From: a virus
Reading direction: 5' to 3' (one strand)
DNA: 64,000 bases
IMG/VR virus record: IMGVR_UViG_3300038379_000741
Coordinates: 12,941 to 76,940 of that record
A program made the position numbers and the translations under genes. The notes under the pieces are model-generated. The model saw only the letters and a program-made list of their open reading frames with translations, made no database searches and had not been told where the DNA came from. Of this stretch, positions 1 through 56,871 are shown piece after piece. Within the stretch, counting starts at the first letter, position 1; each line of letters begins with the position of its first letter.

Positions 1-2
1 AC

Positions 3-392
3 GCGCGCGCCCGAGCCGGGCGTAAGGCCTGGGCCGCCGACGTCGGCTACTTCACGCTCGAGAGCGCCCTCTGCACCTACAAGTCCTGGCACCGCCCGAA
101 CCGCCGCTACCCGAACGTCTACGCCGACATGATGGTCGAGCGCATCCAGATCGCCGAGGAGCACTGGGCCGAGCCCCTCGACATCTTCTGGCGGATCCGC
201 CGGGAGTCGCTGCCCCCCGTCCTCCGCCTCGAGGACAACCCCAACGATCCCGGAGTCGCCCCGGAGAAGCAGAACCGCTATCGCGAGACCGGCGAGGTCG
301 TCTGCATGGACATCGACTGGCCCTGCTTCGCCAGCGAGTTCAACGACGCGCTCCACGGCTACACGACGCGGGCGCCATCTGGGTCCAAGTGA
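3..392 (+). CDS. Amino acid:DNA transferase (alpha-glutamyl/putrescinyl thymine pyrophosphorylase clade 2-like), 5'-truncated by window edge
   Basis: The frame is open from base 3 and reads DVGYFTLESALCTYKSWHRPNRRYPNVYADM...GEVVCMD, which I recognise from aGPT-PPase2 proteins of T-hypermodifying phages. It overlaps the P-loop kinase gene. Confidence 0.7.
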   Translation, partial: ARARAGRKAWAADVGYFTLESALCTYKSWHRPNRRYPNVYADMMVERIQIAEEHWAEPLDIFWRIRRESLPPVLRLEDNPNDPGVAPEKQNRYRETGEVVCMDIDWPCFASEFNDALHGYTTRAPSGSK

Positions 393-3479: not shown

Positions 3480-3742
3480 TGAGGCTCTACTGGAACGCCG
3501 CCTGCGACCCCGGCGCCGAGGACTACTACGACCAGAGCACCACGCCCGACGAGATCTGCCATTCCGGGCGCATCACCGACGAGACCGGCGACGCCATCGT
3601 CCGGTCGGAGTCCGCCGCCTCCCGGCGCGCCGCCATCATCCTCGGGCTTTGCCCCGAGTGCTGGGAGGCCCTCACTCTGGACACACGCGAGTGCACCAAC
3701 CCGTACTGCTCGGAGGGGCCGGAAGGCGGCCTGGAACCGTAA
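3479..3742 (+). CDS. Hypothetical Cys-containing protein (87 aa)
   Basis: TGATG coupling. CPEC and CTNPYC motifs. Confidence 0.55.
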   Translation: MRLYWNAACDPGAEDYYDQSTTPDEICHSGRITDETGDAIVRSESAASRRAAIILGLCPECWEALTLDTRECTNPYCSEGPEGGLEP

Positions 3743-3829
3743 AAAAGAGTTGACAATCATTCGTAGTTGGTTTATAGTATCTGAACGGTCGGCGAGGAGT
3801 CGGCCCGGAAACCGGAGGACGGACTAGCC
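3741..3829 (+). promoter_or_regulatory. Early sigma70-like promoter P2 with conserved leader
   Basis: A6 tract, TTGACA (3750-3755), 17-bp spacer, TATAGT (3773-3778), same leader as P1. Confidence 0.85.
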
Positions 3830-4549
3830 GTGAACACCCATCCCGTAACCCTCGACGGTGTCGACCTCGACTTGCTCGCCACCCGCTTCTGGAGGCTGGA
3901 CGCCATGCGGGTCGACCCCAAGTGCACGTTCACGATCAAGTGGTACCGGCACCAACGCGAGGGTATCGAGGGCGGCGGTGCCTGGGGGCGCGCCCATATC
4001 GCGTTCCGCCACGTCAACATGCGCCTCGCCTGCAACGTGGAGCTGGAGGCCGCTGCCGAGGTCCTGCTCCACGAGCTGGTGCACTGCTCGCTCCCGCCGC
4101 GCGAGAATCACGGCGAGCTGTTCTGCCGGCGCCTGATCGCATGCGCCAAGGAGGCGTTCGGCATTCCCGTCGACGTCGACGCCCTTCTCGGCATCACGTC
4201 GGAGCAACACCCCTTCGGCAACCGCGCCTACGCGATCGACGAGATGCTCCGCCGCCAGATGGGCGCGTGCGGGGTCGCGGATGCGCTGCGCGCCGACCCA
4301 ACACTTCGGCATTCCCCCGCTCCTGTTGAGACGCCGGAAGAGCGCGAGGTCCGGATGGCGGAGGCCGCGCTCAAGCGCCGCAACAACCGCAAGGCCCACG
4401 TCGACGAGATGGTCCGGGTGTGGGACGCTGAGGTCGCTCTTCGCGAGCGGGCCCTCAAGCAGGGCCGGAAGCTCCGGGCGAAGTGGAGAGAGAAGCAAAC
4501 CGGATACGAGAAGCGAGAGCCCCAGGCGGTCAAGAAGAAGGAGGAGTGA
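3830..4549 (+). CDS. SprT-like zinc metallopeptidase domain protein
   Basis: EVLLHELVH...HGELF (HExxH plus downstream His), with a basic coiled-coil C-terminus. Confidence 0.7.
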   Translation: MNTHPVTLDGVDLDLLATRFWRLDAMRVDPKCTFTIKWYRHQREGIEGGGAWGRAHIAFRHVNMRLACNVELEAAAEVLLHELVHCSLPPRENHGELFCRRLIACAKEAFGIPVDVDALLGITSEQHPFGNRAYAIDEMLRRQMGACGVADALRADPTLRHSPAPVETPEEREVRMAEAALKRRNNRKAHVDEMVRVWDAEVALRERALKQGRKLRAKWREKQTGYEKREPQAVKKKEE

Positions 4550-4551
4550 CG

Positions 4552-4767
4552 ATGTCGACGATCACGATGCGAACCGGGCCCACCAACCAGGAGCGAGACT
4601 TCGTCCTCGAGACCGAGCCCCCGACCCCAGCCACCGACGGGCGGATCATCTTCACGCTCAAGACTCGGCGGGAGGAGCAGGTCCGAGCCGTCCTCACCGT
4701 CCACGAAGCCGACCAGCTCATGGGCGTCATCGACGCCGCCCTGCGCGCCGCGCGGAGGAAGCGATGA
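4552..4767 (+). CDS. Hypothetical protein (71 aa)
   Basis: GGAG RBS, coupled to neighbours. Confidence 0.55.
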   Translation: MSTITMRTGPTNQERDFVLETEPPTPATDGRIIFTLKTRREEQVRAVLTVHEADQLMGVIDAALRAARRKR

Positions 4768-4925
4768 AACTCGACGTCTACACCGAGGTCAGCATTCCGG
4801 ACGGGGTCAGGCGAGTCAAGATCGGACGGGGCGAACGCCGCGCCAACGGGACCATCGCGATTCGACTCGACGCTTTTCCAATCTCGGGGATCCTGCTCGT
4901 CTGCGAGGAAGGGAAGAAGCCGTGA
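4764..4925 (+). CDS. Hypothetical protein (53 aa)
   Basis: ATGA overlap with the upstream gene. Confidence 0.45.
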   Translation: MKLDVYTEVSIPDGVRRVKIGRGERRANGTIAIRLDAFPISGILLVCEEGKKP

Positions 4926-5224
4926 AGAAGCTCTTCGCCTTCTGGCGGTACGACTGCTTCCCCTACGTGCTCGGCGCCGAGGTGGAGGAGATCCGAGCCC
5001 TCGATCGCAGCCACCTCTTTCACGGTGACACATCGACCGCCGGCAGAATGCGAAGAGTATTTCTTCACAAGCTCGAAAACCGCGCGGACCTCGCGGCCGG
5101 CGGTGTCGAAGTAGTCGGTCACGACTTCACCTGGATGTCCTTCATCATCGGGCCCTGGTCGGATTCCCCGAGTGGCAACCTCTACCGGCGCGACTCCCAC
5201 AACGCCGATCCCGAGACCCGATGA
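4922..5224 (+). CDS. Hypothetical protein (100 aa)
   Basis: GTGA overlap. N-terminus FAFWRYDCFPYVLG. Confidence 0.45.
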   Translation: MKKLFAFWRYDCFPYVLGAEVEEIRALDRSHLFHGDTSTAGRMRRVFLHKLENRADLAAGGVEVVGHDFTWMSFIIGPWSDSPSGNLYRRDSHNADPETR

Positions 5225-5799
5225 AAGGAAGCGACATGGAACCCGTGAAAGAGATCAAGGATTTGGCCGAGGACGTGGCCGCCAACCACGTGCAGTCGAT
5301 TGCTGCGATCGAGCGCGAGCGCGAGTCGGCCGCCCTGCTGCTGGTCGCGGTCCTGGACGCCGTGCGACAGGCGGCGCCGGCGCTCGCGTCGCGGGTGCCC
5401 GAACACGTCAAGGGAGACGTGCGTGAGTCGAACTGGCAGGACGCCGCGGTCTCGCACTTCCCGTGGCGCGGGATCAAGCTCGTAGGTGGGCCGCTGTTTC
5501 GGGCCGACGGCATCGTCGAGGGTGCCGCTCTCCACTTCGACGAGGACGGCAACCTTCGGATCGTCAGCTACTCGGGGATGTGGACCAAGGACCATAAGGC
5601 CGAGTGGGTGTCGAAGGCGTCCGACCCGGTCACGTGCCGGCAGGTCGTCGACGGTAGGTGGTCGATCGAGGGAATCGTCGAAACATTCGCCCATCACCTC
5701 CGCCGGCACGCCGAGGGGGCACGGGGCAGGCGCGCCGATCAGGCCGCCAGGCTCGCCGATCGTTATGAGGCCATCGTGACGTTGCTGGGGGAGCCATGA
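5221..5799 (+). CDS. Hypothetical protein (192 aa)
   Basis: Coupled ORF that overlaps the start of the Cas12m-like gene. Confidence 0.6.
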   Translation: MKGSDMEPVKEIKDLAEDVAANHVQSIAAIERERESAALLLVAVLDAVRQAAPALASRVPEHVKGDVRESNWQDAAVSHFPWRGIKLVGGPLFRADGIVEGAALHFDEDGNLRIVSYSGMWTKDHKAEWVSKASDPVTCRQVVDGRWSIEGIVETFAHHLRRHAEGARGRRADQAARLADRYEAIVTLLGEP

Positions 5800-7355
5800 T
5801 CCGTGTCTACAAATTCGGTGCACGTCCACCAATGAATCGTGACCTCGTCGTGTCGCAGCTCCACGCGGCGCACGACTACCGCAACACGCTGACGGAGATC
5901 GAGCGCGGCCGGCGCGATGCTGTGCGCCTCGTCTACGAGACCGACGAGATCCGCGAGGCCGCAGACGCGCTCAAGCACGCGACGAAGAGCGACTTTCGCG
6001 CGCGAAAGAAAGCGCTCTATGCGCTGCGTCGCGAGGCGATGGAAGCCAATCAGGAAGAGATCCAACGCATCAACGGACTCGCCGCCGATCTGCAACGCGG
6101 CGCCCGCGAGCTGACGCACACATTCTGGGGAACGTACTTGGACATCGAATCGCAGGCGCAGCAGGCGCGTGCGGATCCGCTCTACGGCGACGATGGACTG
6201 ACACCTCACGCGCCGCGTTTCGTTCGCTGGCGCGATCCGATGCAGGGTCAGCTCGGGGTCCAGATTCAACGTCTGACGACGACAGTCGACGTCCTTGCCG
6301 GGAAGTGCTCGTATGTCCGGGTCGAGCGGCGCGACAAGGGCTACGCCACCCTATGGCTCCGCGTCGGGAGTGATGGACGCGATCCGATCTGGGCACGCTG
6401 GGACATCAAGATGCACCGCGAGGTGCCGAACGCGGCGCGCTGGAAATGGGTCCGTGTCTCGTGCGTGCCGCGATCCTTCCGGGACAAACCCGAGTACCGC
6501 GAGACGTGGACGGTCGAGATCACCGTCGACGATCCGGCTCCTGATGCTCGTTCGCTCGACCGCACGCTGTCGGGTGCGGTCGCCATCTCGTGGTCGTGGG
6601 ATGCTATGCCGGACGAGTCGATCCGCGTCGCATCGTGGCGCGACACGCGCGGACAGGTCGGGGAGATCGTAGTCCCCGTGTCAATCACAAAAGGCATCCG
6701 CAAACCAGACGGAATCCGTGCGGTGCGCGACCTCGTCTGGAACGATGCACAGCCGAAGATCGCTCGCGCCATCAAGGAGAGCCAAGACGCCACGCCTTGG
6801 CTCGTGGAGGCTGCGAACACCATGCCCTACTGGAAGTCGCTCGGCCGCGTACACGAACTCGCCCGCCGTTACCGTGTAGAGGGCTGTACATCTGCGGTCG
6901 CGGCCTACGAGATGATCCACGCGTTTTGTGACCGCGATCTGCACCTCGCCGACTACGAGCGCAATGCGCGCGACGAAGCGATCCGCGAGCGACGTGAGAT
7001 GTACCGCGTACTCGCTGCGCAATGGGCGCGTACGTACCGGCATGTGCTCTTGAGCGACCATGATCTGTCGCGCGAGGCTCGGCGGGGCGAGGACTCGGAT
7101 GTGCGGTTCACAGCTTCGCCGAATCAACTTCGTGGCGCCCTGAAAAACGCGTTCGGCGCGGACGCGATCATGGCCACTTGGGACAAAGAGGAGGGGTGGT
7201 GCGAGCGCGCATGTGCCGCGTATTTTACGGCTGGCGCTCGCAGCGAGATGTTCGCGCAACCAAAGGAAAAAACGACGAACGCATGGGCGTCACGCAAGAA
7301 AAAGAAACAAGAGAAGGAGGCCGCTCGCAAGCCAGACGGTAATGCGGCGGAATGA
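5796..7355 (+). CDS. cas12m: Cas12m (type V-M / V-U1)-like RNA-guided effector, predicted nuclease-dead, 519 aa
   Basis: Colinear motifs recalled from MmCas12m: FWGTY, GQLGVQIQR, LRVGSDGRDPIW...MHREVP, AISWSW...VASWR, GEIVVP, YWKSLGR, EMYRVLAA...VLLSD and ASPNQLR. The RuvC-I acidic position is Ser265, RuvC-II is Asp421, and there is no CxxC Zn finger. The gene directly abuts a CRISPR array. Confidence 0.8.
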   Translation: MIRVYKFGARPPMNRDLVVSQLHAAHDYRNTLTEIERGRRDAVRLVYETDEIREAADALKHATKSDFRARKKALYALRREAMEANQEEIQRINGLAADLQRGARELTHTFWGTYLDIESQAQQARADPLYGDDGLTPHAPRFVRWRDPMQGQLGVQIQRLTTTVDVLAGKCSYVRVERRDKGYATLWLRVGSDGRDPIWARWDIKMHREVPNAARWKWVRVSCVPRSFRDKPEYRETWTVEITVDDPAPDARSLDRTLSGAVAISWSWDAMPDESIRVASWRDTRGQVGEIVVPVSITKGIRKPDGIRAVRDLVWNDAQPKIARAIKESQDATPWLVEAANTMPYWKSLGRVHELARRYRVEGCTSAVAAYEMIHAFCDRDLHLADYERNARDEAIRERREMYRVLAAQWARTYRHVLLSDHDLSREARRGEDSDVRFTASPNQLRGALKNAFGADAIMATWDKEEGWCERACAAYFTAGARSEMFAQPKEKTTNAWASRKKKKQEKEAARKPDGNAAE

Positions 7356-7374
7356 TTGGCATCGTGGAGGAGAT

Positions 7375-7792
7375 ATTCAAAGGGCAGCGCAAGGCCTTCA
7401 ACGTTGCGACAGCATCGGTTGATTGAAGGGGCGCGTCGGGTCCAGCTCATTCAAAGGGCAGCGCAAGGCCTTCAACGTTGCGACCGGAGCGACCTCGGGG
7501 AGGTGCGCGCGATTCAAAGGGCAGCGCAAGGCCTTCAACGTTGCGACCAGATCAACGCGGTCGACCGGATCGAGAGCGCCACGTAGATTCAAAGGGCAGC
7601 GCAAGGCCTTCAACGTTGCGACTCGTGCTCGCGCTCTCGCCGACGCTCTCGAGGATCACGCCTCATTCAAAGGGCAGCGCAAGGCCTTCAACGTTGCGAC
7701 GAATCGATCCATCACTTCTCTCCCGGGATCAAAGAGCAGCGCGGGGCTCCAACGTTGCGACAGCGGCCATTCGCGAGGCTCCAACGTCGCGC
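7375..7792 (+). CRISPR. Mini CRISPR array: 5 identical 36-bp repeats, 5 spacers, degenerate trailer repeats
   Basis: ATTCAAAGGGCAGCGCAAGGCCTTCAACGTTGCGAC occurs at 7375, 7449, 7512, 7587 and 7665. Spacers are 38, 27, 39, 42 and 27 bp. A degenerate copy lies at 7728-7761 and a remnant at about 7773-7792. The 3' stem CGCAA/TTGCG is followed by AC. Confidence 0.97.
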
Positions 7793-7895
7793 CCGGATCG
7801 GCAACGTGACACACACCATCCCAGCAACATGAGCGCCAAGGGCCGCGGCCCCACACCGGCTCCTGGTTCGTGCCCGCGGCATCTCGAGAGTTCAG

Positions 7896-8276
7896 ATGAA
7901 ACGCACCGTCACGATTGTGTTCGAGGTCGACTTCGACGAGTTCGGAGACGAGAAGAACCCCAACTGGGACCCCAGGTTGGCGCCGCTCGACCGAACCGCC
8001 GAGGGAGCCATCGAGTATGCGGAAGCCTGCATGCTCGGTGAGGCCGATTGGCCGGCAGCCGGCAGCCGTCACGATCTCGTGCGACGACGCGAACAAGCGG
8101 TTCGAGCCATGAGCAAACCGCCTCTCTGCGAGGGTCTTCGGTGTAAGCCCAAAGGAACGCGGTTCTTGTCTGCGGGCCTGGATGTCTTGATCCTCGGCGG
8201 TCCGTACCCCTCGTCCGCCGAGGAGCTGCCGCCCATGTGGCATGTCCGCATTATCTCCGACGAGGCGCGCTACTAA
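7896..8276 (+). CDS. Hypothetical protein (126 aa)
   Basis: ORF lying between two copies of an MSAKGRGP start. Confidence 0.45.
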   Translation: MKRTVTIVFEVDFDEFGDEKNPNWDPRLAPLDRTAEGAIEYAEACMLGEADWPAAGSRHDLVRRREQAVRAMSKPPLCEGLRCKPKGTRFLSAGLDVLILGGPYPSSAEELPPMWHVRIISDEARY

Positions 8277-8323
8277 GGGCTCGCCGGCCTCTACTATGTC
8301 CGCGAGGATTGCTTGGTGTCGAC

Positions 8324-8677
8324 GTGAGCGCCAAGGGACGAGGCCCGCGCGCCGCAGCCGCCGGCCACTATGCTACCCCGGAGTTCGCGACGCGCGTGCT
8401 CCTCAACCGACTCCCGGACCTCAACAACCACGTCGTCCTCGACCTCGGGTGCGGGACCGGTGCCATCGCGCGGGTCATCCAGAAGCGCTATCCGCTCGCC
8501 AAGCTCCTCGGGCTCGAGCTGAACCCACGCGTCGCCCGCCAGGCCGCCAAGAACGTCGAGTGGTCGGAGCCGATCCTGATCGGCGACGTCCGGAACCTCC
8601 AGCCCGGTATGTTCTCGACATCTTCTTCCTCTGCTGAAGCGAACCTTCTAGATTGGGATGGCCATGCCCCTCATTGA
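8324..8677 (+). pseudogene. Truncated SAM-dependent (DNA) methyltransferase
   Basis: HYATPEF...VVLDLGCGTGAI...GLEL (SAM-binding motif I), but the ORF ends before any NPPY/DPPY-type catalytic motif. Confidence 0.6.
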
Positions 8678-10512: not shown

Positions 10513-12236
10513 AACGCATGGCCAAGAGAAAGTTGCTTGACGGGACCGCTGCGTCCATGTTCAGTAAACGCATGGAATTGGAGGCACGTCGGCAGGAGCT
10601 TCAAATGGCGCTCGACGCAGACCGTTCCCAAGAAGAGCGGAACAAACTCGGGCAGTTCGCCACTCCTCTCGAGCTGGCGCGCGAAGTGGCTCGTGCAGCC
10701 CTCAACTACCTCAGGGGGCCAATTCGGTTTTTCGACCCCTCAATTGGGTCGGGTTCGTTCTTCTCTGCACTCCTCAACGAGCGCGGTCATCGAAAGCTCG
10801 CGTCCGCCCGAGGCATCGAGTTGGACGAGCGTTTTGTCAAGGCCGCCCGCAACCTATGGTCCGACGCCGGCCTCGTGGTGAATAACGGGGACTTCACGAA
10901 GTTGAAGCCACATACCGAGAACGCGACGCGCGCTACTCTCGTCTTGGCAAACCCGCCGTACGTCCGACATCACCATCTTGACCGGGAACAGAAGATCGGG
11001 CTCCAACGACGCGCCGAATCAATGCTGCGCTGCAAGGTGAGCGGGCTTTCGGGGCTCTATGTTTATTTCGTGCTCCTAACGCACGAATGGATGTCTGACG
11101 ACGGCGTTGCCGCTTGGCTGATCCCGAGCGAGTGGATGGACGTGAATTATGGGGCAGCTCTCAAAGAGTACTTATGCTCTCGCGTTACGCTTCTTCGGGT
11201 ACACCGCTTCGATGCAGCCGACGTGCAGTTCAAGGATGCGCTCGTCTCATCGGCGGTCGTCTTGTTCCGCAAGCGGGAGGCACCCAAAGGAGGTGTATGC
11301 GACATGACTGTAGGCTCTCTTTCGGCGCCGGTTCGGAGCCAGCAAATCTCCCTTACCGAGCTTCGACACGCTCCGAAATGGAGCTTTTATTTCCGCCCAA
11401 ACGGACAAGAACACAAGATGGACGTTCCAACTGTGACGCTCGGCGACCTATTTGACGTCAAGCGAGGGATTGCTACCGGAGCAAATGACTTCTTCGTCCG
11501 ACCCCGCGCGGAGTTCCAGGCGATCGGGATTCCCGACAAGTTTCTCCGACCCGTACTTCCTTCCTCCCGCCACCTCACGGGAGCGGTCATTGAGCGCGGC
11601 CCAGATGGCTATCCCAAACTTGAAGTTCCTCTCGCACTCCTTGACTGCAACCTTCCGGAGGAGCAAGTCAGGAAGGCGTTCCCGAAGTTGTGGAGCTACC
11701 TCGAATCGCCCGAAGGGCAGCAGGTTCGTACCGGGTATCTCACAAGCGGGCGGCGACCCTGGTACTCACAGGAGCAACGTGCATCAGCTCCCATCGTCGC
11801 GACATACATGGGGCGTGGCGGCCGAATGACGAAGCCGTTCAAGTTCTTCTGGAATCGCTCAGATGCAACGGCCACGAACGTGTACTTGATGCTAATCCCG
11901 AAGGGCGAGATCGCCGACGTATTAGGCGCGGAACCGGAGAAGGCGAAGGCCATCCGCGCGTTCCTCGACGAGACCGACGTTTCGGAGCTTCTCGGCCACG
12001 GCCGCGTTTACGGCGGTGGCCTTCACAAGCTCGAACCGAAAGAACTGGGGCGGCTGGACGCCTCTCGGCTGGTTCGTGATCTGGGTCTCGCGGTCAGTTT
12101 GCACCCTTCGTGGCGATCCCGAGGAGCGCGCACTCGGCCGCGACCTCGGCGTGCGCCTGGGCGAGGGCTTCCGCCTCCTCGCTCTCGCGCGCAGCACGGT
12201 CCTCTGCGAGCGCGGCCTCCCGCTCACTCGCGGTGA
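10509..12236 (+). CDS. Orphan N6-adenine DNA methyltransferase (Eco57I/TaqI-class, XamI-associated-like)
   Basis: GQFATP, FFDPSIGSGSF, NPPYVRH, LYVYF, RGIATGANDFF and YGGGLHKLEPKEL motifs. Codon usage is more AT-rich than the flanks. Confidence 0.88.
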   Translation: MKRMAKRKLLDGTAASMFSKRMELEARRQELQMALDADRSQEERNKLGQFATPLELAREVARAALNYLRGPIRFFDPSIGSGSFFSALLNERGHRKLASARGIELDERFVKAARNLWSDAGLVVNNGDFTKLKPHTENATRATLVLANPPYVRHHHLDREQKIGLQRRAESMLRCKVSGLSGLYVYFVLLTHEWMSDDGVAAWLIPSEWMDVNYGAALKEYLCSRVTLLRVHRFDAADVQFKDALVSSAVVLFRKREAPKGGVCDMTVGSLSAPVRSQQISLTELRHAPKWSFYFRPNGQEHKMDVPTVTLGDLFDVKRGIATGANDFFVRPRAEFQAIGIPDKFLRPVLPSSRHLTGAVIERGPDGYPKLEVPLALLDCNLPEEQVRKAFPKLWSYLESPEGQQVRTGYLTSGRRPWYSQEQRASAPIVATYMGRGGRMTKPFKFFWNRSDATATNVYLMLIPKGEIADVLGAEPEKAKAIRAFLDETDVSELLGHGRVYGGGLHKLEPKELGRLDASRLVRDLGLAVSLHPSWRSRGARTRPRPRRAPGRGLPPPRSRAQHGPLRARPPAHSR

Positions 12237-12273
12237 GGCGCTCCCAGATCGACTGGAGGTGCTCTCGACTCAT
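12094..12273 (-). CDS. Small helical hypothetical protein (59 aa)
   Basis: MSREHLQSIWERLTASEREAALAED... is a protein-like frame, divergent from the gene at 12379 across the palindrome. Confidence 0.4.
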   Translation of the reverse strand: MSREHLQSIWERLTASEREAALAEDRAARESEEAEALAQAHAEVAAECALLGIATKGAN

Positions 12274-12315
12274 GCCCATCATCTTACGCCCTGCCCGACG
12301 TCCTCGCAAGGGAGC

Positions 12316-12337
12316 GACGTCCCCGCGCGGGGACGTC
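12316..12337. repeat. Perfect 22-bp palindrome, copy 1
   Basis: GACGTCCCCGCGCGGGGACGTC, identical at 22296 and 51592. Confidence 0.95.
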
Positions 12338-12378
12338 AGCTTCCGCTCATCACCACCCTCGGCGCCATCTCCCTCCCC

Positions 12379-13041
12379 ATGGATGAGTACCGCCTCGAGG
12401 TGATGCCGGAGGGTGCCGATGACTGGGTCCTGCTCCAGAAGTGCTCGGGACCGATCCCCAAGGTGGGTGACACCATCAACGTCTACAGCGATCGACTCCC
12501 CCACGAGCGCACCTACTTCAACGTCGTCGACGTCCTGCATCACATGAACGCGTTTGGGCTCGATTCGGGCGAGACAGCCGCGGTATCGGAGATCTACGTC
12601 CACCTCGAGCCCGTCGACAGCGAGCCCCTGCGCCTCCTCTGCGACTGCGACGAGACCTGCTGGCGAGCCCACGGCATCGACGCCGACGACGAGTGCGGCT
12701 TCTGCGGCCTGCTCCGTCCCACCCCCCGCCCGAAGTGGAACAAGACCTCCGACCAGTGCTGGATCGCCAACGTCGACGTCCCCAGGCTCCAGGTCGTCGA
12801 GTCCGAGGACCCCGCCGAGCCTCGCGCCCAGATCCCCTACGTCCGGAAGGGCGTGGCCCGGCTGGTGGTCGAGAAGACGCCCGGCACCCAGGGCCAGTTC
12901 CGCTGGTGCGTGATCCTCGAGTCCGAGATCGAGCGCTACAGCGACAACCTCGGGGGTCACGAGGACTTCGCGGCTCGGGGATGCTCTCGCACCGCCGAGG
13001 GCGCACGCCAAGCCGCTATGGCTGCCGAGAAGCACGTCTGA
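12379..13041 (+). CDS. Hypothetical protein (220 aa)
   Basis: GC3-rich portion of ORF 12016-13041, with CDC...C...CGFC Cys motifs. Confidence 0.6.
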   Translation: MDEYRLEVMPEGADDWVLLQKCSGPIPKVGDTINVYSDRLPHERTYFNVVDVLHHMNAFGLDSGETAAVSEIYVHLEPVDSEPLRLLCDCDETCWRAHGIDADDECGFCGLLRPTPRPKWNKTSDQCWIANVDVPRLQVVESEDPAEPRAQIPYVRKGVARLVVEKTPGTQGQFRWCVILESEIERYSDNLGGHEDFAARGCSRTAEGARQAAMAAEKHV

Positions 13042-33293: not shown

Positions 33294-33598
33294 GCGGCGA
33301 GCGCGGCTCCGTCCAGGTCGACGGCCGCAGGGTCGGCCCCAGCCAAGTCGGCGTCGACCAGCAGTACGTAGGCGCGATCACGCCCAGCGACGTCACCGTC
33401 TACGACCCGCCGCTCAAGAAGATCCGCGTGGGCGTCGCGGGGGCCGGCAACCTCGTCCTCGTCTACGCCGCCGACGACGAGTCCGTGGCCGCCAATCGCG
33501 ACACCGTCGCGGTCGCCAACAACCAAGTCGTCAGCGGCTTCCTGATCCGGCAAGTGCGGGCCGCCACCACCGCGACGACGCTGACCGGCTACCGATGA
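33290..33598 (+). CDS. Head spike-base-like protein, short paralog
   Basis: GAITPSD...KIRVGVAGAGNL...RQVRAATTATTLTGY. Confidence 0.6.
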   Translation: MSGERGSVQVDGRRVGPSQVGVDQQYVGAITPSDVTVYDPPLKKIRVGVAGAGNLVLVYAADDESVAANRDTVAVANNQVVSGFLIRQVRAATTATTLTGYR

Positions 33599-36549
33599 GG
33601 GCCCTCATCGGCGACGACGGTGGGAGCTACACTCCAACCTCCGCGCTTTCGATCAGCGCCGGCCCCGTCCGGCTCCTCGACATCGGCGTCGTCGACGTGC
33701 ACCGAGACGGAGCAGGCGGACACTACACCCCGATCGACGGGCCCACACTCGAGCAGCTTACACGCTCGCTCGACGACAGAGCGGTCACGATGCCGTTCGT
33801 CTCGCAGGCGCAGCGGCAGTGGATGCACATCAACCACCCCGAGATCGCCAAGCGGTGGGAGAAGCACACACCAAAGGGTGCCCACCTCCCCTGGCGCGTC
33901 CAGTCCAAGGACTCGGTCCCGAGCCCCGGCGACGTCGCCCTCATCGTCGTCGACGACGGCAACGGGCGCGTCCTCACGGTCTCGCGCGACGGCAACCCGG
34001 CCAACATCGCGATCCCGGGCGGTCACGTCGAGGCCGACGAGCACCCCGCCGTTGCGGCCTCCCGCGAGTTGTACGAGGAGACCGGCGTCTCGACGTGGGT
34101 ATCGGGCTCCAACATGGTCGAGGAGCTTTTCAGCGCCGGACGACCGGACGCCCACGGCGAAGACTACGTCTACCGCGCCGTCTCGCACGACGCTCTCAGC
34201 ATCCCGAGCTTCACGCCCGAACCCGGCGAGCACGTCCGTTGGGCCCTCCCGAGCGAGCTGCTCTGCGACACGTGCACGTTCCGGGACTGGACCCGCCAGC
34301 ACTTCGACGCCCTCTTCGGGCACCTCCAGAAGGTTCCAATGACTGACCCCAAGAAGCCCGTCACCGTGTCCGTCCACGTCCAGCCGATGCTGGACGGCAA
34401 GCCCATCACGATGGCGGAGCTGGAGACCCGCTTCGGTGACCTCGGGACCGGCGCGCGCAAGGGCCTCCCGGACACGGCTTTCGCCTCTCCGGGCGACCGC
34501 AAGTACCCGATCCACGACGCCGCCCACGTCCGCAACGCGGCCGCCCGACTCGAGCAGCAGAAGGGCTCCATGAGCCCCGCCAAGTACCGGCAAATCCGCT
34601 CGCGCATTGCGCGCGCCGCCAAGCGCTTCGGGATCAAGAGCGCCTACAACGCCCCCAAGAAGACCGCCGAGAAGCCGACGGTGCCGAGCAATCAGCGCAT
34701 CAGCGTCCACGCCGACATCGCCCCTGGCGGGCGCGTCCACGTCGTCCACCACATGAGCGACAAGGACGGACGTGAGTGGAACGCCTACCGAATCCGCGCC
34801 CTCGGCACCGAGGACGCCGCCGGGTTCCACCTCCAGCTCGCCGACGCGGACCGCCCGAAGAAGCTGGTCTGGATCCAGCTCGCCGAGTGCGGCGCGTTCC
34901 GCGGCCACCCCGCGGGGGCCTTCGCGCTCACCCCGACCGTCTTCTCCGAGATCGTCCGCAACTTCGACGCCGACGGCATCCCGGTCCCGATCGATTACGA
35001 GCACGCGAGCGAGCAGGAGCCCACCGCCGGCAACATCCCCCGCCACGGGGCCCCGGCCCAGGGCTGGATCCACAAGCTCGAGAACCGCGGCGACGACGGC
35101 CTCTGGGGCCTCGTCGAGTGGGGCCCGCAGGCCGCCGACCAGATCCGTACCGGTCAGTACCGGTACATCTCGCCCGCCATCCGGTTTGGGGCCAAGGACC
35201 GCCAGAGCGGTCACGAGATCGGCGCCAAGCTCACCTCCGCCGGCCTCACCAACCAGCCCTTCCTGAAGGGCATGCAGGTCCTCGCCGCCAAGGATCGCGG
35301 CGCGTCGCACACGATGCAGACGACCACCGAGTCCGACGCCGACAGCAGCGTCCCGATGCAGACCATGGCCGACTCCGACGCCCCCCTCGGCGCGTTCGGA
35401 GCATTCGGTGCCTTTGTCGACGAGGCCGACATGGCCGCCTTCGCGGCTTTCCGGGCCGCGCGCATGGCCGCCTTCGCCGCCAAGCCCCCGCCGCCCACCA
35501 AGCCCTCGGAGTACATGCCCCGGATCAAGGCGGCGCTCCGGCTCGCCGACCTCGCGACCTGCGCGGAGACGATGGCGCAGTTCTGCCGGCTCCGGGACCG
35601 CTTCATGGCCGTCTCGGCCGAGTACTCGACGACTGCCGAGTACAAGAGTGCCGATGGCGTCGACCTCGGCGGCTACGTCGGCGCCCTGGCCGACATCGCC
35701 GCGAAAGACCGACTCAGCGCCACCCTCCACGAGGTCCTCGAGATCGTCCACCACATGATCTGCGTGGCCATGGAGAAGCACGAGCTGGAGATGCACATCG
35801 ACCAGCTCGCCGAGGAGGACGCGATGGAGGCCGCAGAGGAGCGCCTCATGCAGGATCTTGCGAAGGACTCGACCCTTGCGGCGGCCTTCGGTGAGCAGAA
35901 ACCCCAAACCCCGGCGCAAGGCGAAACGAATCCACAAGGAGACACGACGATGGACATCAAGCTCGCAGACCACGAAAAGGCAATCGCGGCCAAGGACGGC
36001 GTGATCCAGTCCAAGGACACCGAGATTGAGGGCCTTAAGCTCCAGCTCTCGTCCAAGGACGGCAAGATCACCGAGCTGGCCGCCAAGCTCACCGAGGCCG
36101 AGCAGCGGGAGCAGGACCGGCTCGCCAAGGACCTCGACGCCGAGGCCGACGCCATGATCGCCAACCCCGACAACCATCTCAAGGCGGAGTCCAAGCCGAC
36201 GGTCCTGCGCCTCCTCAAGGCGGATCCGGAAGGCACCCGCTCCCTCTACAAGGCGGCCGCGGTCCCCGCGGCCGGCGGTGCCCTCCCCCCGAAGTTCCAC
36301 CACCTCTCACAGCGCCTCCCGGCGTCGCGCCCGGGCGGCTCTAAGGACGAGGCGGACGGCAAGCTCCCCGACATCCTCGTCATGGGCGACGGCTGCGAGA
36401 TCGAGAGCAAGCTCCTCGCCGAGACGCGCGAGCAGACCACGGATCGCCTCATGTCCGAGAAGAAGCTCTCGTTCGAGGACGCCAGCCAGGAGGCCTGGGA
36501 CGCCCACAACCGCCTCTCCCAATACACCCGGCAGTCGCACGCGCGCTGA
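33595..36549 (+). CDS. Polyprotein: Nudix hydrolase + small domains + Mu gpI-like prohead protease + scaffold
   Basis: Nudix box GGHVEADEHPAVAASRELYEETG. Protease motifs PIDYEH, AQGWI, LWGLVEW, YRYISP and LTNQPFL. C-terminal coiled coil. Confidence 0.85.
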   Translation: MRALIGDDGGSYTPTSALSISAGPVRLLDIGVVDVHRDGAGGHYTPIDGPTLEQLTRSLDDRAVTMPFVSQAQRQWMHINHPEIAKRWEKHTPKGAHLPWRVQSKDSVPSPGDVALIVVDDGNGRVLTVSRDGNPANIAIPGGHVEADEHPAVAASRELYEETGVSTWVSGSNMVEELFSAGRPDAHGEDYVYRAVSHDALSIPSFTPEPGEHVRWALPSELLCDTCTFRDWTRQHFDALFGHLQKVPMTDPKKPVTVSVHVQPMLDGKPITMAELETRFGDLGTGARKGLPDTAFASPGDRKYPIHDAAHVRNAAARLEQQKGSMSPAKYRQIRSRIARAAKRFGIKSAYNAPKKTAEKPTVPSNQRISVHADIAPGGRVHVVHHMSDKDGREWNAYRIRALGTEDAAGFHLQLADADRPKKLVWIQLAECGAFRGHPAGAFALTPTVFSEIVRNFDADGIPVPIDYEHASEQEPTAGNIPRHGAPAQGWIHKLENRGDDGLWGLVEWGPQAADQIRTGQYRYISPAIRFGAKDRQSGHEIGAKLTSAGLTNQPFLKGMQVLAAKDRGASHTMQTTTESDADSSVPMQTMADSDAPLGAFGAFGAFVDEADMAAFAAFRAARMAAFAAKPPPPTKPSEYMPRIKAALRLADLATCAETMAQFCRLRDRFMAVSAEYSTTAEYKSADGVDLGGYVGALADIAAKDRLSATLHEVLEIVHHMICVAMEKHELEMHIDQLAEEDAMEAAEERLMQDLAKDSTLAAAFGEQKPQTPAQGETNPQGDTTMDIKLADHEKAIAAKDGVIQSKDTEIEGLKLQLSSKDGKITELAAKLTEAEQREQDRLAKDLDAEADAMIANPDNHLKAESKPTVLRLLKADPEGTRSLYKAAAVPAAGGALPPKFHHLSQRLPASRPGGSKDEADGKLPDILVMGDGCEIESKLLAETREQTTDRLMSEKKLSFEDASQEAWDAHNRLSQYTRQSHAR

Positions 36550-55608: not shown

Positions 55609-56871
55609 ATGCCCCACTTCCCCAAGGTCTGGCCGAACGGATTCAAGGACGGGATCACCACCGCCCAGGCCCACCAGCTCAAGAAGATCGACGACGCCCT
55701 CGCGAAGGCCGTCAACGGGGACGACGGCGGCCTCTGGGTCCCGGCCAAGCTCGAGGCTGACACTACCGCGTGGCGCCTCTACAAGGTCTCGGTCGTCTCC
55801 CAGGTCACGCCCTACACCGACGCCGACGGCGGCCAGAACGCCGTCTACCTCGTCGACTCGACCTCCAACGACCACCACAAGTTCTACCGGGACCTCCCCA
55901 CCTTCGTCTCCGGGCACAGGTACACGATCTCGACCTTCGCGAAGAAGAACACCGCCGTCCGGTACCTCTGGATGGCCAACGACCCGGGGACGACCCAGTA
56001 CGTCTTCTTCGACCTCCAGACGGGGACCGTCGGTGCCACGGGCGGCGGAGCGACCGGGACCATCACGTCCGCGGGGGGCGGTTGGTACTACTGCTCGGCG
56101 ACCATCCCGAACTGGACCGCGGCCCGGACCCACGTCGGAATGAGCACCGGCAACGGGACCTTCGCCTACGCCGGGACCGGCTTCCAGGGGATCCTGCTCT
56201 ACAAGGCGCTCGCCGACTTCGACTCCGGCACCGTCAAGGCGCGCCCGATCGTCGTCGGCGGGCTCGGCCTCCAACCCACCGTCGCCCCCACCAAGTGGCC
56301 GACCTTCGGCGAGGCGGGCGGCCAGCGCGTCTTCGTCCGCCGACTCGGCGCCCTCCCGGCTTCGCTCCTCCCCGGCCAGGCTCTCCCGACCTCCGGCGAC
56401 TTCATCGAGGGCCAGGGCCTCGGGCTCATGGGCGACCGACCCCTCCTGCTCCTCGACCTGCCCGAGGGCTCCTACCTGGCGAGCGTTACCGCCTACGTCA
56501 AGATCGCCACCATCCTGCGATCCCCTCTTCCGACCAACCTCCCAAAGATGAGCGTCCTTCGGACCGCGATCACGACTGGGTCCGAGTTGGAGCTGAGGGC
56601 GGCAGGGGCCTCCACATTCGTGGTCGGCGGGACCGGGATCCCGGACGCCTACGTCTCCCCACCAGCCAGCCCCAACGTTTACCCGACGACCGGGGGCCCC
56701 GGGGCCGTCCAAAAGTGGACGTACACGGCCGACCAGATCAACGCGGTCGACCGGACGACCTACTTCTACACGATCCGGATCCACGACGAGTCGGGAGGCA
56801 CCGCCATCGCGGGCAACACCTACCTCGGCTTCGAGCTGACCTTCCTGGCTCCCGAACTCCGAATTGCCTGA
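55609..56871 (+). CDS. Tail/fibre-associated protein, paralog A with inserted domain; contains the protospacer of spacer 3
   Basis: Colinear with 56884-57609 apart from a ~160-aa insertion. Confidence 0.7.
   Translation: MPHFPKVWPNGFKDGITTAQAHQLKKIDDALAKAVNGDDGGLWVPAKLEADTTAWRLYKVSVVSQVTPYTDADGGQNAVYLVDSTSNDHHKFYRDLPTFVSGHRYTISTFAKKNTAVRYLWMANDPGTTQYVFFDLQTGTVGATGGGATGTITSAGGGWYYCSATIPNWTAARTHVGMSTGNGTFAYAGTGFQGILLYKALADFDSGTVKARPIVVGGLGLQPTVAPTKWPTFGEAGGQRVFVRRLGALPASLLPGQALPTSGDFIEGQGLGLMGDRPLLLLDLPEGSYLASVTAYVKIATILRSPLPTNLPKMSVLRTAITTGSELELRAAGASTFVVGGTGIPDAYVSPPASPNVYPTTGGPGAVQKWTYTADQINAVDRTTYFYTIRIHDESGGTAIAGNTYLGFELTFLAPELRIA

Follow-up and report, generated by a model that had tools for sequence, protein, structure and literature searches.

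The 64,000-nt stretch of viral DNA analyzed here (the window; positions 12,941 to 76,940 of IMG/VR virus record IMGVR_UViG_3300038379_000741) carries a CRISPR module made of one 519-aa effector gene and the repeat-spacer array behind it. The effector, P0001, is a relative of Cas12m by sequence and by fold. It has lost the zinc finger and carries serines where RuvC carboxylates are expected, and the only identifiable target of its array is the phage's own genome. Why would a phage carry a guide against itself? We propose that the cassette is a self-contained phage CRISPR-interference unit, an RNA-guided repressor of resident genomes and not an immune nuclease, and we give this proposal an even chance of being right. 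The initial annotation, made from the sequence alone, had described a phage-borne, nuclease-dead Cas12m-like effector that represses host defense genes or competing phages; this interpretation is partly supported, and binding of DNA without cleavage is here a prediction.

A zinc-less Cas12m relative and its CRISPR RNA

Scans of P0001 against Pfam and NCBIfam gave no match. By phmmer, the protein recovered the PDB sequence 23vw_A, a 'CRISPR-associated DNA-binding protein Cas12m' (E 8.6e-24), and a profile built from 30 members of its clade (profile A1) matched 23vw (E 5e-66), Cas12m2 (8hio and 8hhl, 3e-28), and GoCas12m (8pm4, 2.5e-24). The AlphaFold2 model is confident (pLDDT 88.7). Four Cas12m structures occupy the top ranks of a Foldseek search with this model (E 1e-18 to 8e-21, TM 0.63-0.71), with TM 0.67-0.71 to 8hhl (Cas12m2) and 8pm4 (GoCas12m); the next family, Cas12h/Cas12f, follows at E 4e-8, thirteen orders of magnitude behind. 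TnpB structures are much weaker (TM 0.39-0.41), so that the fold comparison with Cas12m and TnpB suggested by the initial annotation ranks Cas12m first. Its reading of a minimal CRISPR system encoded by the phage is supported: the module is adaptation-less and resembles type V-M, and its effector has the Cas12m fold, which combines WED, REC, and RuvC with a coiled-coil REC2 insertion. Among GenBank phages, the DNA of the locus found no match, and a protein search returned only Virus Rctr197k, at 30% identity.

The catalytic site of P0001 is degenerate. At RuvC-I, Ser265 aligns to the Asp of 'AIDLGW' in 23vw and to His317 of Cas12m2, as had been proposed. The proposed RuvC-II residue, Asp421, proved to be off by one: Ser420 fills the catalytic column, opposite Asp485 of Cas12m2, and Asp421 aligns to the adjacent Asp486 and is kept in 97 of 115 sequences. 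The RuvC-III column depends on the aligner, with MAFFT placing Arg471 of a conserved W-C-E-R motif there and hhalign an acidic residue of the loop 463-466. A C-terminal 'DGNAAE' was considered as a RuvC-III motif and rejected as a coincidence in a disordered, unconserved tail. The zinc finger, reported missing, is indeed absent: the C-terminal 170 aa contain neither CxxC...CxxC nor the aligned D-x-N-A-A motif, where relatives of ~600 aa carry CxxC...CxxC followed by W-D-Q-D-x-N-A-A. The segment from the last beta-strand to the basic tail is ~30 aa in P0001 and its clade versus ~85 aa in zinc-bearing relatives, and the alignments of profile A1 to solved Cas12m structures end before the zinc-finger region. 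In total length, the protein is 77 aa below the 596-aa Cas12m2, close to the ~75 aa first estimated. Type V-M effectors are recognized by an HCCC or CCCC zinc finger (TNB) inserted in RuvC ahead of the RuvC-III helix, a finger that P0001 lacks, and its RuvC triad matches none of the described types (D-E-D, N-E-D, D-N-D, H-D-D, N-D-D, and H-E/Q-K). With the carboxylates lost at two RuvC positions and the zinc finger gone, the effector is apparently nuclease-dead.

These losses are shared. In a maximum-likelihood tree, P0001 falls in a monophyletic clade of 122 tips, all of them zinc-less (SH-aLRT 100), and we take the clade to hold at least 122 sequences. A census of RuvC-I and RuvC-II residues in 232 full-length family members found the pairs D-E (68), N-D (8), N-E (5), and H-D (4) among zinc-bearing proteins, and E-S (53), E-D (23), E-P (19), and S-S (8, P0001 included) among zinc-less ones, in which RuvC-I varies between E, S, Q, A, and N. 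The clade nevertheless looks constrained, because 34 residues are invariant across 30 members that share only 38-66% identity. Homologs are plentiful in metagenomes and on long contigs, many of them 50-230 kb in size, and the clade consists mostly of phage or metagenome contigs. It is almost absent from bacterial genomes: a scan of one genome per species for 185,579 prokaryote species detected a single locus, on a 3.3-kb contig of an Acidimicrobiales bin, and the short array fragment of that genome has no target found within it. A protein search added a second case, P0093 (41% identical), which lies beside ordinary bacterial genes in a Labilithrix metagenome-assembled genome and looks like an integrated element. 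The initial annotation had suggested an undescribed clade, and the literature that we searched contains neither this zinc-less, RuvC-degenerate clade nor its near-exclusive association with phages nor its self- and host-directed guides. We class the P0001 system as a zinc-less form of type V-M.

Does the array fit the effector? Every cleanly definable repeat of the clade has a length of 36 nt and GAC as its 3' end. When 15 repeats are aligned, two pseudoknot stems appear (repeat nt 9-11/20-22 and 14-18/30-34) in which every one of the 120 cells across the 15 loci is paired, and compensatory double changes occur in six of the eight pairs; 500 shuffles gave no result as good, and sliding the partner lowered pairing to 32-44%. 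Counted from the 3' end, the stems join -28 to -26 with -17 to -15 and -23 to -19 with -7 to -3, and those of the PmCas12m CRISPR RNA (crRNA) join -28 to -26 with -17 to -15 (stem I) and -23 to -20 with -6 to -3 (stem II). The repeats thus fold into a Cas12m-type crRNA pseudoknot in the same register as PmCas12m. This register fixes the + strand as the transcribed one and supports a Cas12m-type handle 5' of the guide; the + strand crRNAs originally deduced from a stem followed by AC are borne out, with a full pseudoknot and covariation in place of the simple stem. An inverted copy of the repeat (anti-repeat) is absent within 5500-8500, and hence no trans-activating CRISPR RNA (tracrRNA) is indicated. 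The array lies 3' of the effector gene in 5/5 IMG/VR relatives with a full-length hit and in 10/10 metagenome loci having ~140 nt or more downstream (15/15 combined), and the same order recurs in L040 and L051.

Guides matching resident genomes

Of the five spacers bounded by repeats, S3 has a target in the phage's own genome (Table 1). The match ends abruptly after nt 22, with a chance expectation of 3e-8 for a 94-kb genome, and is longer than the 17-18-bp heteroduplex read by Cas12m. The site is in the 3' part of the open reading frame (ORF) 55609-56871, ~130 nt before the next gene, in the baseplate/tail-fiber module; this ORF gave weak carbohydrate-binding and receptor-binding-like leads only. 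Neither S1, S2, S4, nor S5 has a target in the phage genome. An exact scan of 2.9 million IMG/VR contigs with the first 22 nt of S1-S5 yielded no match, and the array found only chance-level matches among GenBank phages (E 0.4 or worse). In 401 sampled Myxococcota genomes only S4 produced matches, short and GC-rich ones that were rejected as chance; two of them could be located, one in an aminotransferase-like gene and one in nrdR, which are unrelated. The host-defense or rival-phage targets originally envisaged were thus found for this array in none of these three collections.

Related phages extend the pattern. Five related phage records were fetched whole, and each array was searched against its own genome. 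In G002, which is complete with terminal repeats, three of five spacers match the genome perfectly over 35-37 nt, one in a gene for a RecD/Dda-like helicase, one in a 431-aa ORF, and one in a gene that encodes a chagasin-like domain. In G005, one of ten spacers does so over 35 nt, in a small ORF or intergenic region. The arrays of G001, G003, and G004, whose records are 55-63% complete, contain no self-matching spacers. A metagenome locus, L032, holds one spacer twice, and this spacer matches 33 nt inside the locus's own effector gene. All effectors from loci with self-matching spacers are zinc-less with degenerate RuvC residues. As a control, the spacers of each of the six phage genomes were set against the other five genomes (30 ordered pairs): the longest match is 16 nt, the exception being 25 nt of array-flanking sequence shared by G003 and G004. 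Two further ideas were examined and rejected: the target of G002 spacer 3 is not an opposite-strand promoter or ribosome-binding site, the site lying inside the + strand gene with the chagasin-like domain, and the genes matched by S3 and by G002 spacer 2 are not homologous.

The Labilithrix element points to the host. Two spacers of its 11-repeat array match a different, chromosomal contig (G006:C291), one over 38/38 nt close to the 5' end of a gene for an alpha/beta-hydrolase, directly downstream of an ECF sigma factor gene (L049:1501-1538), the other over 41/43 nt in a VWA-domain gene (L050:1418-1460). Host targeting was seen in a 41%-identical integrated relative only, and neither gene is a known defense gene. 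Both protospacers are flanked by 5'-TTC, the final C of which coincides with the last repeat base. The six phage self-protospacers (flanks GAC, GCC, GAC, CGA, CTG, and GCT) yield no consensus for a protospacer-adjacent motif (PAM). The contrast in TTC between self and host targets is suggestive only, as it comes from different orthologs and few cases.

Locus layout, transcription, and a displaced repeat

The features of the locus are collected in Table 1. The ORF, its 4-bp overlap with the upstream gene, the 19-nt leaderless gap, and five identical 36-nt repeats were all correctly seen by the initial annotation. Its repeat count holds for the identical copies; it missed a degenerate sixth repeat, a hairpin remnant behind that, and a seventh copy displaced from the array.

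Table 1. Coordinates of the effector-array locus and associated features (window positions).
Feature	Position	Strand	Remarks
Sigma-70-like promoter	3750..3778	+	TTGACA, 17-nt spacer, TATAGT; probably drives the operon ending in effector and array
Cas12m-family effector (P0001), zinc-less, RuvC-degenerate, 519 aa	5796..7355	+	phmmer, clade profile, AlphaFold2, Foldseek
Gap from stop codon to first repeat	7356..7374	+	19 nt, without leader; read directly from the sequence
Five identical 36-nt repeats	7375..7700	+	starts 7375, 7449, 7512, 7587, 7665
Spacer S1	7411-7448	+	38 nt
Spacer S2	7485-7511	+	27 nt
Spacer S3	7548-7586	+	39 nt
Spacer S4	7623-7664	+	42 nt
Spacer S5	7701..7725	+	25 nt
Sixth, degenerate terminal repeat	7726..7761	+	both stems kept via G-U pairs; foldable
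Trailing sequence, would-be sixth guide	7762..7797	+	holds hairpin remnant of a further repeat, 7772-7791
Own-genome protospacer	56730..56755	+	56734-56755 = S3 positions 1-22, exact; preceding CGAC = repeat 3' end

The effector ORF overlaps the upstream ORF 5221-5799 in the start/stop sequence ATGA. We prefer this 519-aa start over the 507-aa database call because the 12 N-terminal residues are conserved in relatives. Similar gaps of 19-23 nt separate gene and array in L023, L027, L040, and L051, and the degenerate sixth repeat resembles the repeat of L023, the closest relative. The AT-rich codon usage noted at first is real and modest: third-position G+C is 0.75 in the effector gene versus 0.84-0.94 in neighboring genes.

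How is the module expressed? The promoter upstream matches 11 of 12 consensus positions, where 0.2 such sites are expected in shuffled sequence. No promoter-like site was found in 5000-8300 and no terminator-like site in 3500-5300; a weak terminator-like hairpin lies inside the effector gene (7196-7219). The array is most likely the 3' end of an early operon driven by the host polymerase. The early expression proposed from the first is thus supported, at the level of prediction, by a near-consensus sigma-70-type promoter and by the lack of any closer to the array.

A bona fide phage genome encodes the module. The source record is 94,388 bp long and an estimated 88% complete. Its genes include those for terminase, portal, protease, major head, sheath, and baseplate, and a search of it turned up neither an integrase nor a serine recombinase. 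The absence of cas1, cas2, and cas4 first noted in the window holds for Cas1, which was found neither in the whole 94-kb record nor in four related phages; Cas2 and Cas4 were not searched. We looked for an accessory gene conserved beside the effector across loci and found none, the neighbors themselves not being conserved between loci, and therefore regard the cassette as effector and array alone. The locus was detected in one DNA sequencing run, from a freshwater metagenome, and in no RNA sequencing run. A myxobacterial host is suggested only by relatives in Labilithrix and Polyangiales bins and by G+C content.

The displaced seventh repeat is an exact copy 356 nt before the window (L038/G000:C1:12584-12619), ~7.7 kb upstream of the array, in a ~200-nt gap between a RuvC-like resolvase ORF (11778-12488) and a ParB-like ORF. 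The 35 nt on its 5' side are the 3' end of S4 (window 7630-7664), and because repeat and preceding sequence together match the end of S4 and the repeat behind it, a 71-nt unit (12549-12619) has been duplicated. None of the five related phage genomes has a displaced repeat. Possible roles are that of a hard-wired guide and that of a site for mRNA processing or binding; it may equally be a scar of recombination. The ParB-like frame 3' of it (L038:12513-12940, continuing into window 1-130) appears to change frame near 12790, leaving two overlapping ORFs that each encode a plausible protein; a frameshift, an error in sequencing, or the presence of two genes could account for this.

Other arrays of the set also show rearrangement. 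Four consecutive spacers are duplicated in L051:11760-12820 and two spacers in L032:2509-3180, and arrays therefore also grow by recombination, not by acquisition alone. L051 itself is a 233-kb contig with a canonical TnpB gene (OrfB_IS605 and zinc ribbon) 2 kb 3' of the array. The array of G001 (L002, 59,962 bp) spans both contig ends, with one spacer present at each, so the contig is circularly permuted or broken inside the array; its CheckV completeness of 63% may mislead. Within the head module of the present phage, a 984-aa ORF (window 33595-36549) joins a MutT/NUDIX hydrolase match (~105-199) to a head-maturation protease match (418-803), an unusual fusion.

Proposed regulation of resident genomes and its alternatives

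How would such a module work? We propose that the operon is transcribed from the host-type promoter at 3750, with the array as the 3' end of the same transcript, and that translation of the effector is coupled to that of the preceding gene. The effector derives from Cas12m and lacks the zinc-finger (TNB) insert as well as two or three of the RuvC carboxylates. It would bind the repeat pseudoknots and mature the crRNAs, of which approximately the first 17-22 nt of the spacer would open an R-loop in double-stranded DNA next to a PAM. The effector would then stay bound without cutting and block RNA polymerase. Its main targets would be resident genomes: the phage's own late tail-fiber-region gene (S3) in the present case, own genes including the effector gene in relatives, and host chromosomal genes in the integrated relative. 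A more specific and rather doubtful version is that phages, even apparently virulent ones such as this one, use a miniature, zinc-less dead-Cas12m array as a programmable transcription factor that times infection. Early crRNA-effector complexes would sit on late or replication genes of the phage, on the effector gene, or on host genes, and would be titrated off as genomes replicate; the displaced repeat upstream of the ParB-like gene would serve as a second, hard-wired guide or as an mRNA-processing site.

Could the effector still cut? A nuclease for DNA or RNA with a rebuilt site might draw on Asp421, on the Glu found at RuvC-I in most clade members, and on the acidic residue of loop 463-466 that profile-profile alignment sets opposite RuvC-III. 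P0001, however, has Ser and not Glu at RuvC-I, most members have Ser or Pro in the RuvC-II column, and even D-E-D Cas12m do not cut (PMC11013384). Since the guides perfectly match the carrier's own and host genomes, where cleavage would kill the carrier, this reading is hard to hold, and we consider it the least probable of all. Only slightly better placed, and still very improbable, is an action on RNA, with guides antisense to mRNAs blocking translation, or on the host's CRISPR system, with the dead effector and its repeats serving as an anti-CRISPR decoy that absorbs Cas12m-type crRNAs or proteins of the host. In six of eight mapped cases the crRNA is the complement of the target gene's mRNA, known precedents include phage decoys made of dead Cas9 and anti-CRISPR RNAs with a solitary repeat (PMC11656645), and this phage does have an orphan repeat. 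Against this, the other two cases, S3 included, have the same sense as the mRNA, repeats covary with the adjacent effector across the clade and are thus cognate rather than host mimics, all characterized Cas12m bind double-stranded DNA, and the TTC flanks in G006 point to PAM-dependent DNA recognition. Decay is likewise very improbable. A non-functional Cas12m remnant, with self-matches as neutral debris, would account for the lost catalytic residues and TNB domain, the variable RuvC-I, the short array with spacers of 25-42 nt, and the degenerate and displaced repeats, and deletion of the TNB kills PmCas12m; yet the diverged full-length members keep their invariant residues, arrays are always retained with stems that change by compensatory substitution, the present array has five identical repeats, the fold is predicted with confidence, and the gene-to-array spacing is conserved.

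The most serious alternative keeps the nuclease-dead binder and changes its purpose: the module would silence co-infecting relatives or elements, and matching copies in the carrier, lacking a PAM, would be tolerated by-products. Plasmid type V-M and type IV systems are read as inter-element tools, and virus mini-arrays target related viruses (PMC11656645). The absence of TTC at the six self-protospacers versus its presence at both host targets in G006 fits this explanation, as do self-targets scattered inside genes, which random acquisition from a sibling genome would give, and an S3 match that breaks off at nt 22 in a tail-fiber-like gene, a kind often mosaic. Opposing it, none of the spacers in the six phage arrays has a match in another of these phages, the scans of IMG/VR and GenBank phages returned no rival, the G002 matches are perfect over the full spacer length, and the targets in two relatives, its own effector gene in one and host genes in the other, are not competitors. 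We regard competition as possible and less probable, and favor regulation of resident genomes, for which we would put the chances for and against on a par; the missing PAM evidence keeps the two readings close.

Several observations weigh against regulation of resident genomes. Four of the five to six guides are without a known target, and the Labilithrix case comes from a binned metagenome-assembled genome, where binning could mislead. TTC stands at 0/6 phage self-protospacers versus 2/2 Labilithrix host targets; were the PAM T-rich, the CGAC-flanked S3 copy would not be bound. The self-targets lie inside genes, not promoters, and both strands are hit: pairing of the guide is to the coding strand in 6/8 mapped cases and to the template strand in 2/8. 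The targets have no gene class in common. A residual active site could still draw on the acidic residues of loop 463-466, and engineered TNB deletion abolished the activity of PmCas12m.

What does the module resemble? Type V-M is the closest comparison (MmCas12m2, GoCas12m, and PmCas12m; 8hhl, 8pm4, and 23vw), being homologous in sequence and fold. Both have a single effector beside an array, without tracrRNA or adaptation genes (only Cas1 was searched here), on mobile elements, and both have a 36-nt repeat with a two-stem pseudoknot in equal register and a non-canonical RuvC site. P0001 differs in lacking the TNB zinc finger and the D-x-N-A-A helix motif, in being ~75 aa shorter, in its RuvC columns (S-S in P0001 itself, with E-S, E-P, or E-D across its clade, versus D-E-D, H-D-D, N-D-D, and H-E/Q-K), and in belonging to a separate clade, almost absent from bacteria, whose guides match the carrier's own genome. 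Cas12m of the D-E-D, H-D-D, and N-D-D types bind without cutting and act as transcription roadblocks (PMC11013384, PMC10442227), and plasmids and some prophages are known to carry V-M systems (PMC11656645).

A phage-borne Cas12m as such is already known and is not new here: a September 2026 preprint describes the 610-aa D-E-D MvCas12m of myxophage MV-1 as the first phage Cas12m (bioRxiv 10.64898/2026.09.14.751636). It too lies beside an array without tracrRNA, in a system without cas1, cas2, or cas4 and with no protospacers found. Unlike MvCas12m (D305/E463/D555), the 519-aa P0001 is zinc-less and RuvC-degenerate and has a self-matching guide. By length and intact triad, MvCas12m resembles the zinc-bearing relatives (P0115-P0121 and others), beside which we set it by description. 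Such 'classical' phage-borne Cas12m are not unique to MV-1, because two IMG/VR phages, G003 and G004 (L004/L005), also carry zinc-bearing homologs of ~606 aa, with His at RuvC-I like Cas12m2; their arrays have 3-8 repeats, with some spacers of only 17-18 nt and no self-matches found.

TldRs, some of which are borne by prophages, repress genes of the resident genome and have likewise lost the RuvC/zinc-finger module, a convergent feature and not evidence of membership; without this C-terminus they retain guide-directed DNA binding and gene repression (PMC10705468). They derive, however, directly from TnpB, use a single omega-RNA-like guide beside the gene where every locus here has a true repeat-spacer array, lack the Cas12m REC2 insertion, and target promoters. 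Type IV-A systems and virus mini-arrays (PMC11656645) are similarly nuclease-free, adaptation-less, and carried on mobile elements, act by binding, and include some self-targets; type IV is nevertheless a multi-subunit class 1 system with DinG, and archaeal virus mini-arrays borrow a host effector.

If the clade is active, it would provide a natural Cas12m that works without a TNB, even though engineered TNB deletion destroyed PmCas12m, and its loss of the RuvC/zinc-finger module would be the second, independent one in the TnpB-Cas12 lineage. At ~520 aa, its members would be among the smallest programmable, non-cutting, crRNA-only binders of double-stranded DNA, of use for CRISPR interference, base editing, and epigenome editing. 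Guides directed to own genes, to the effector gene, and to the host would then extend the TldR story, with a viral CRISPR array serving regulation and not immunity.

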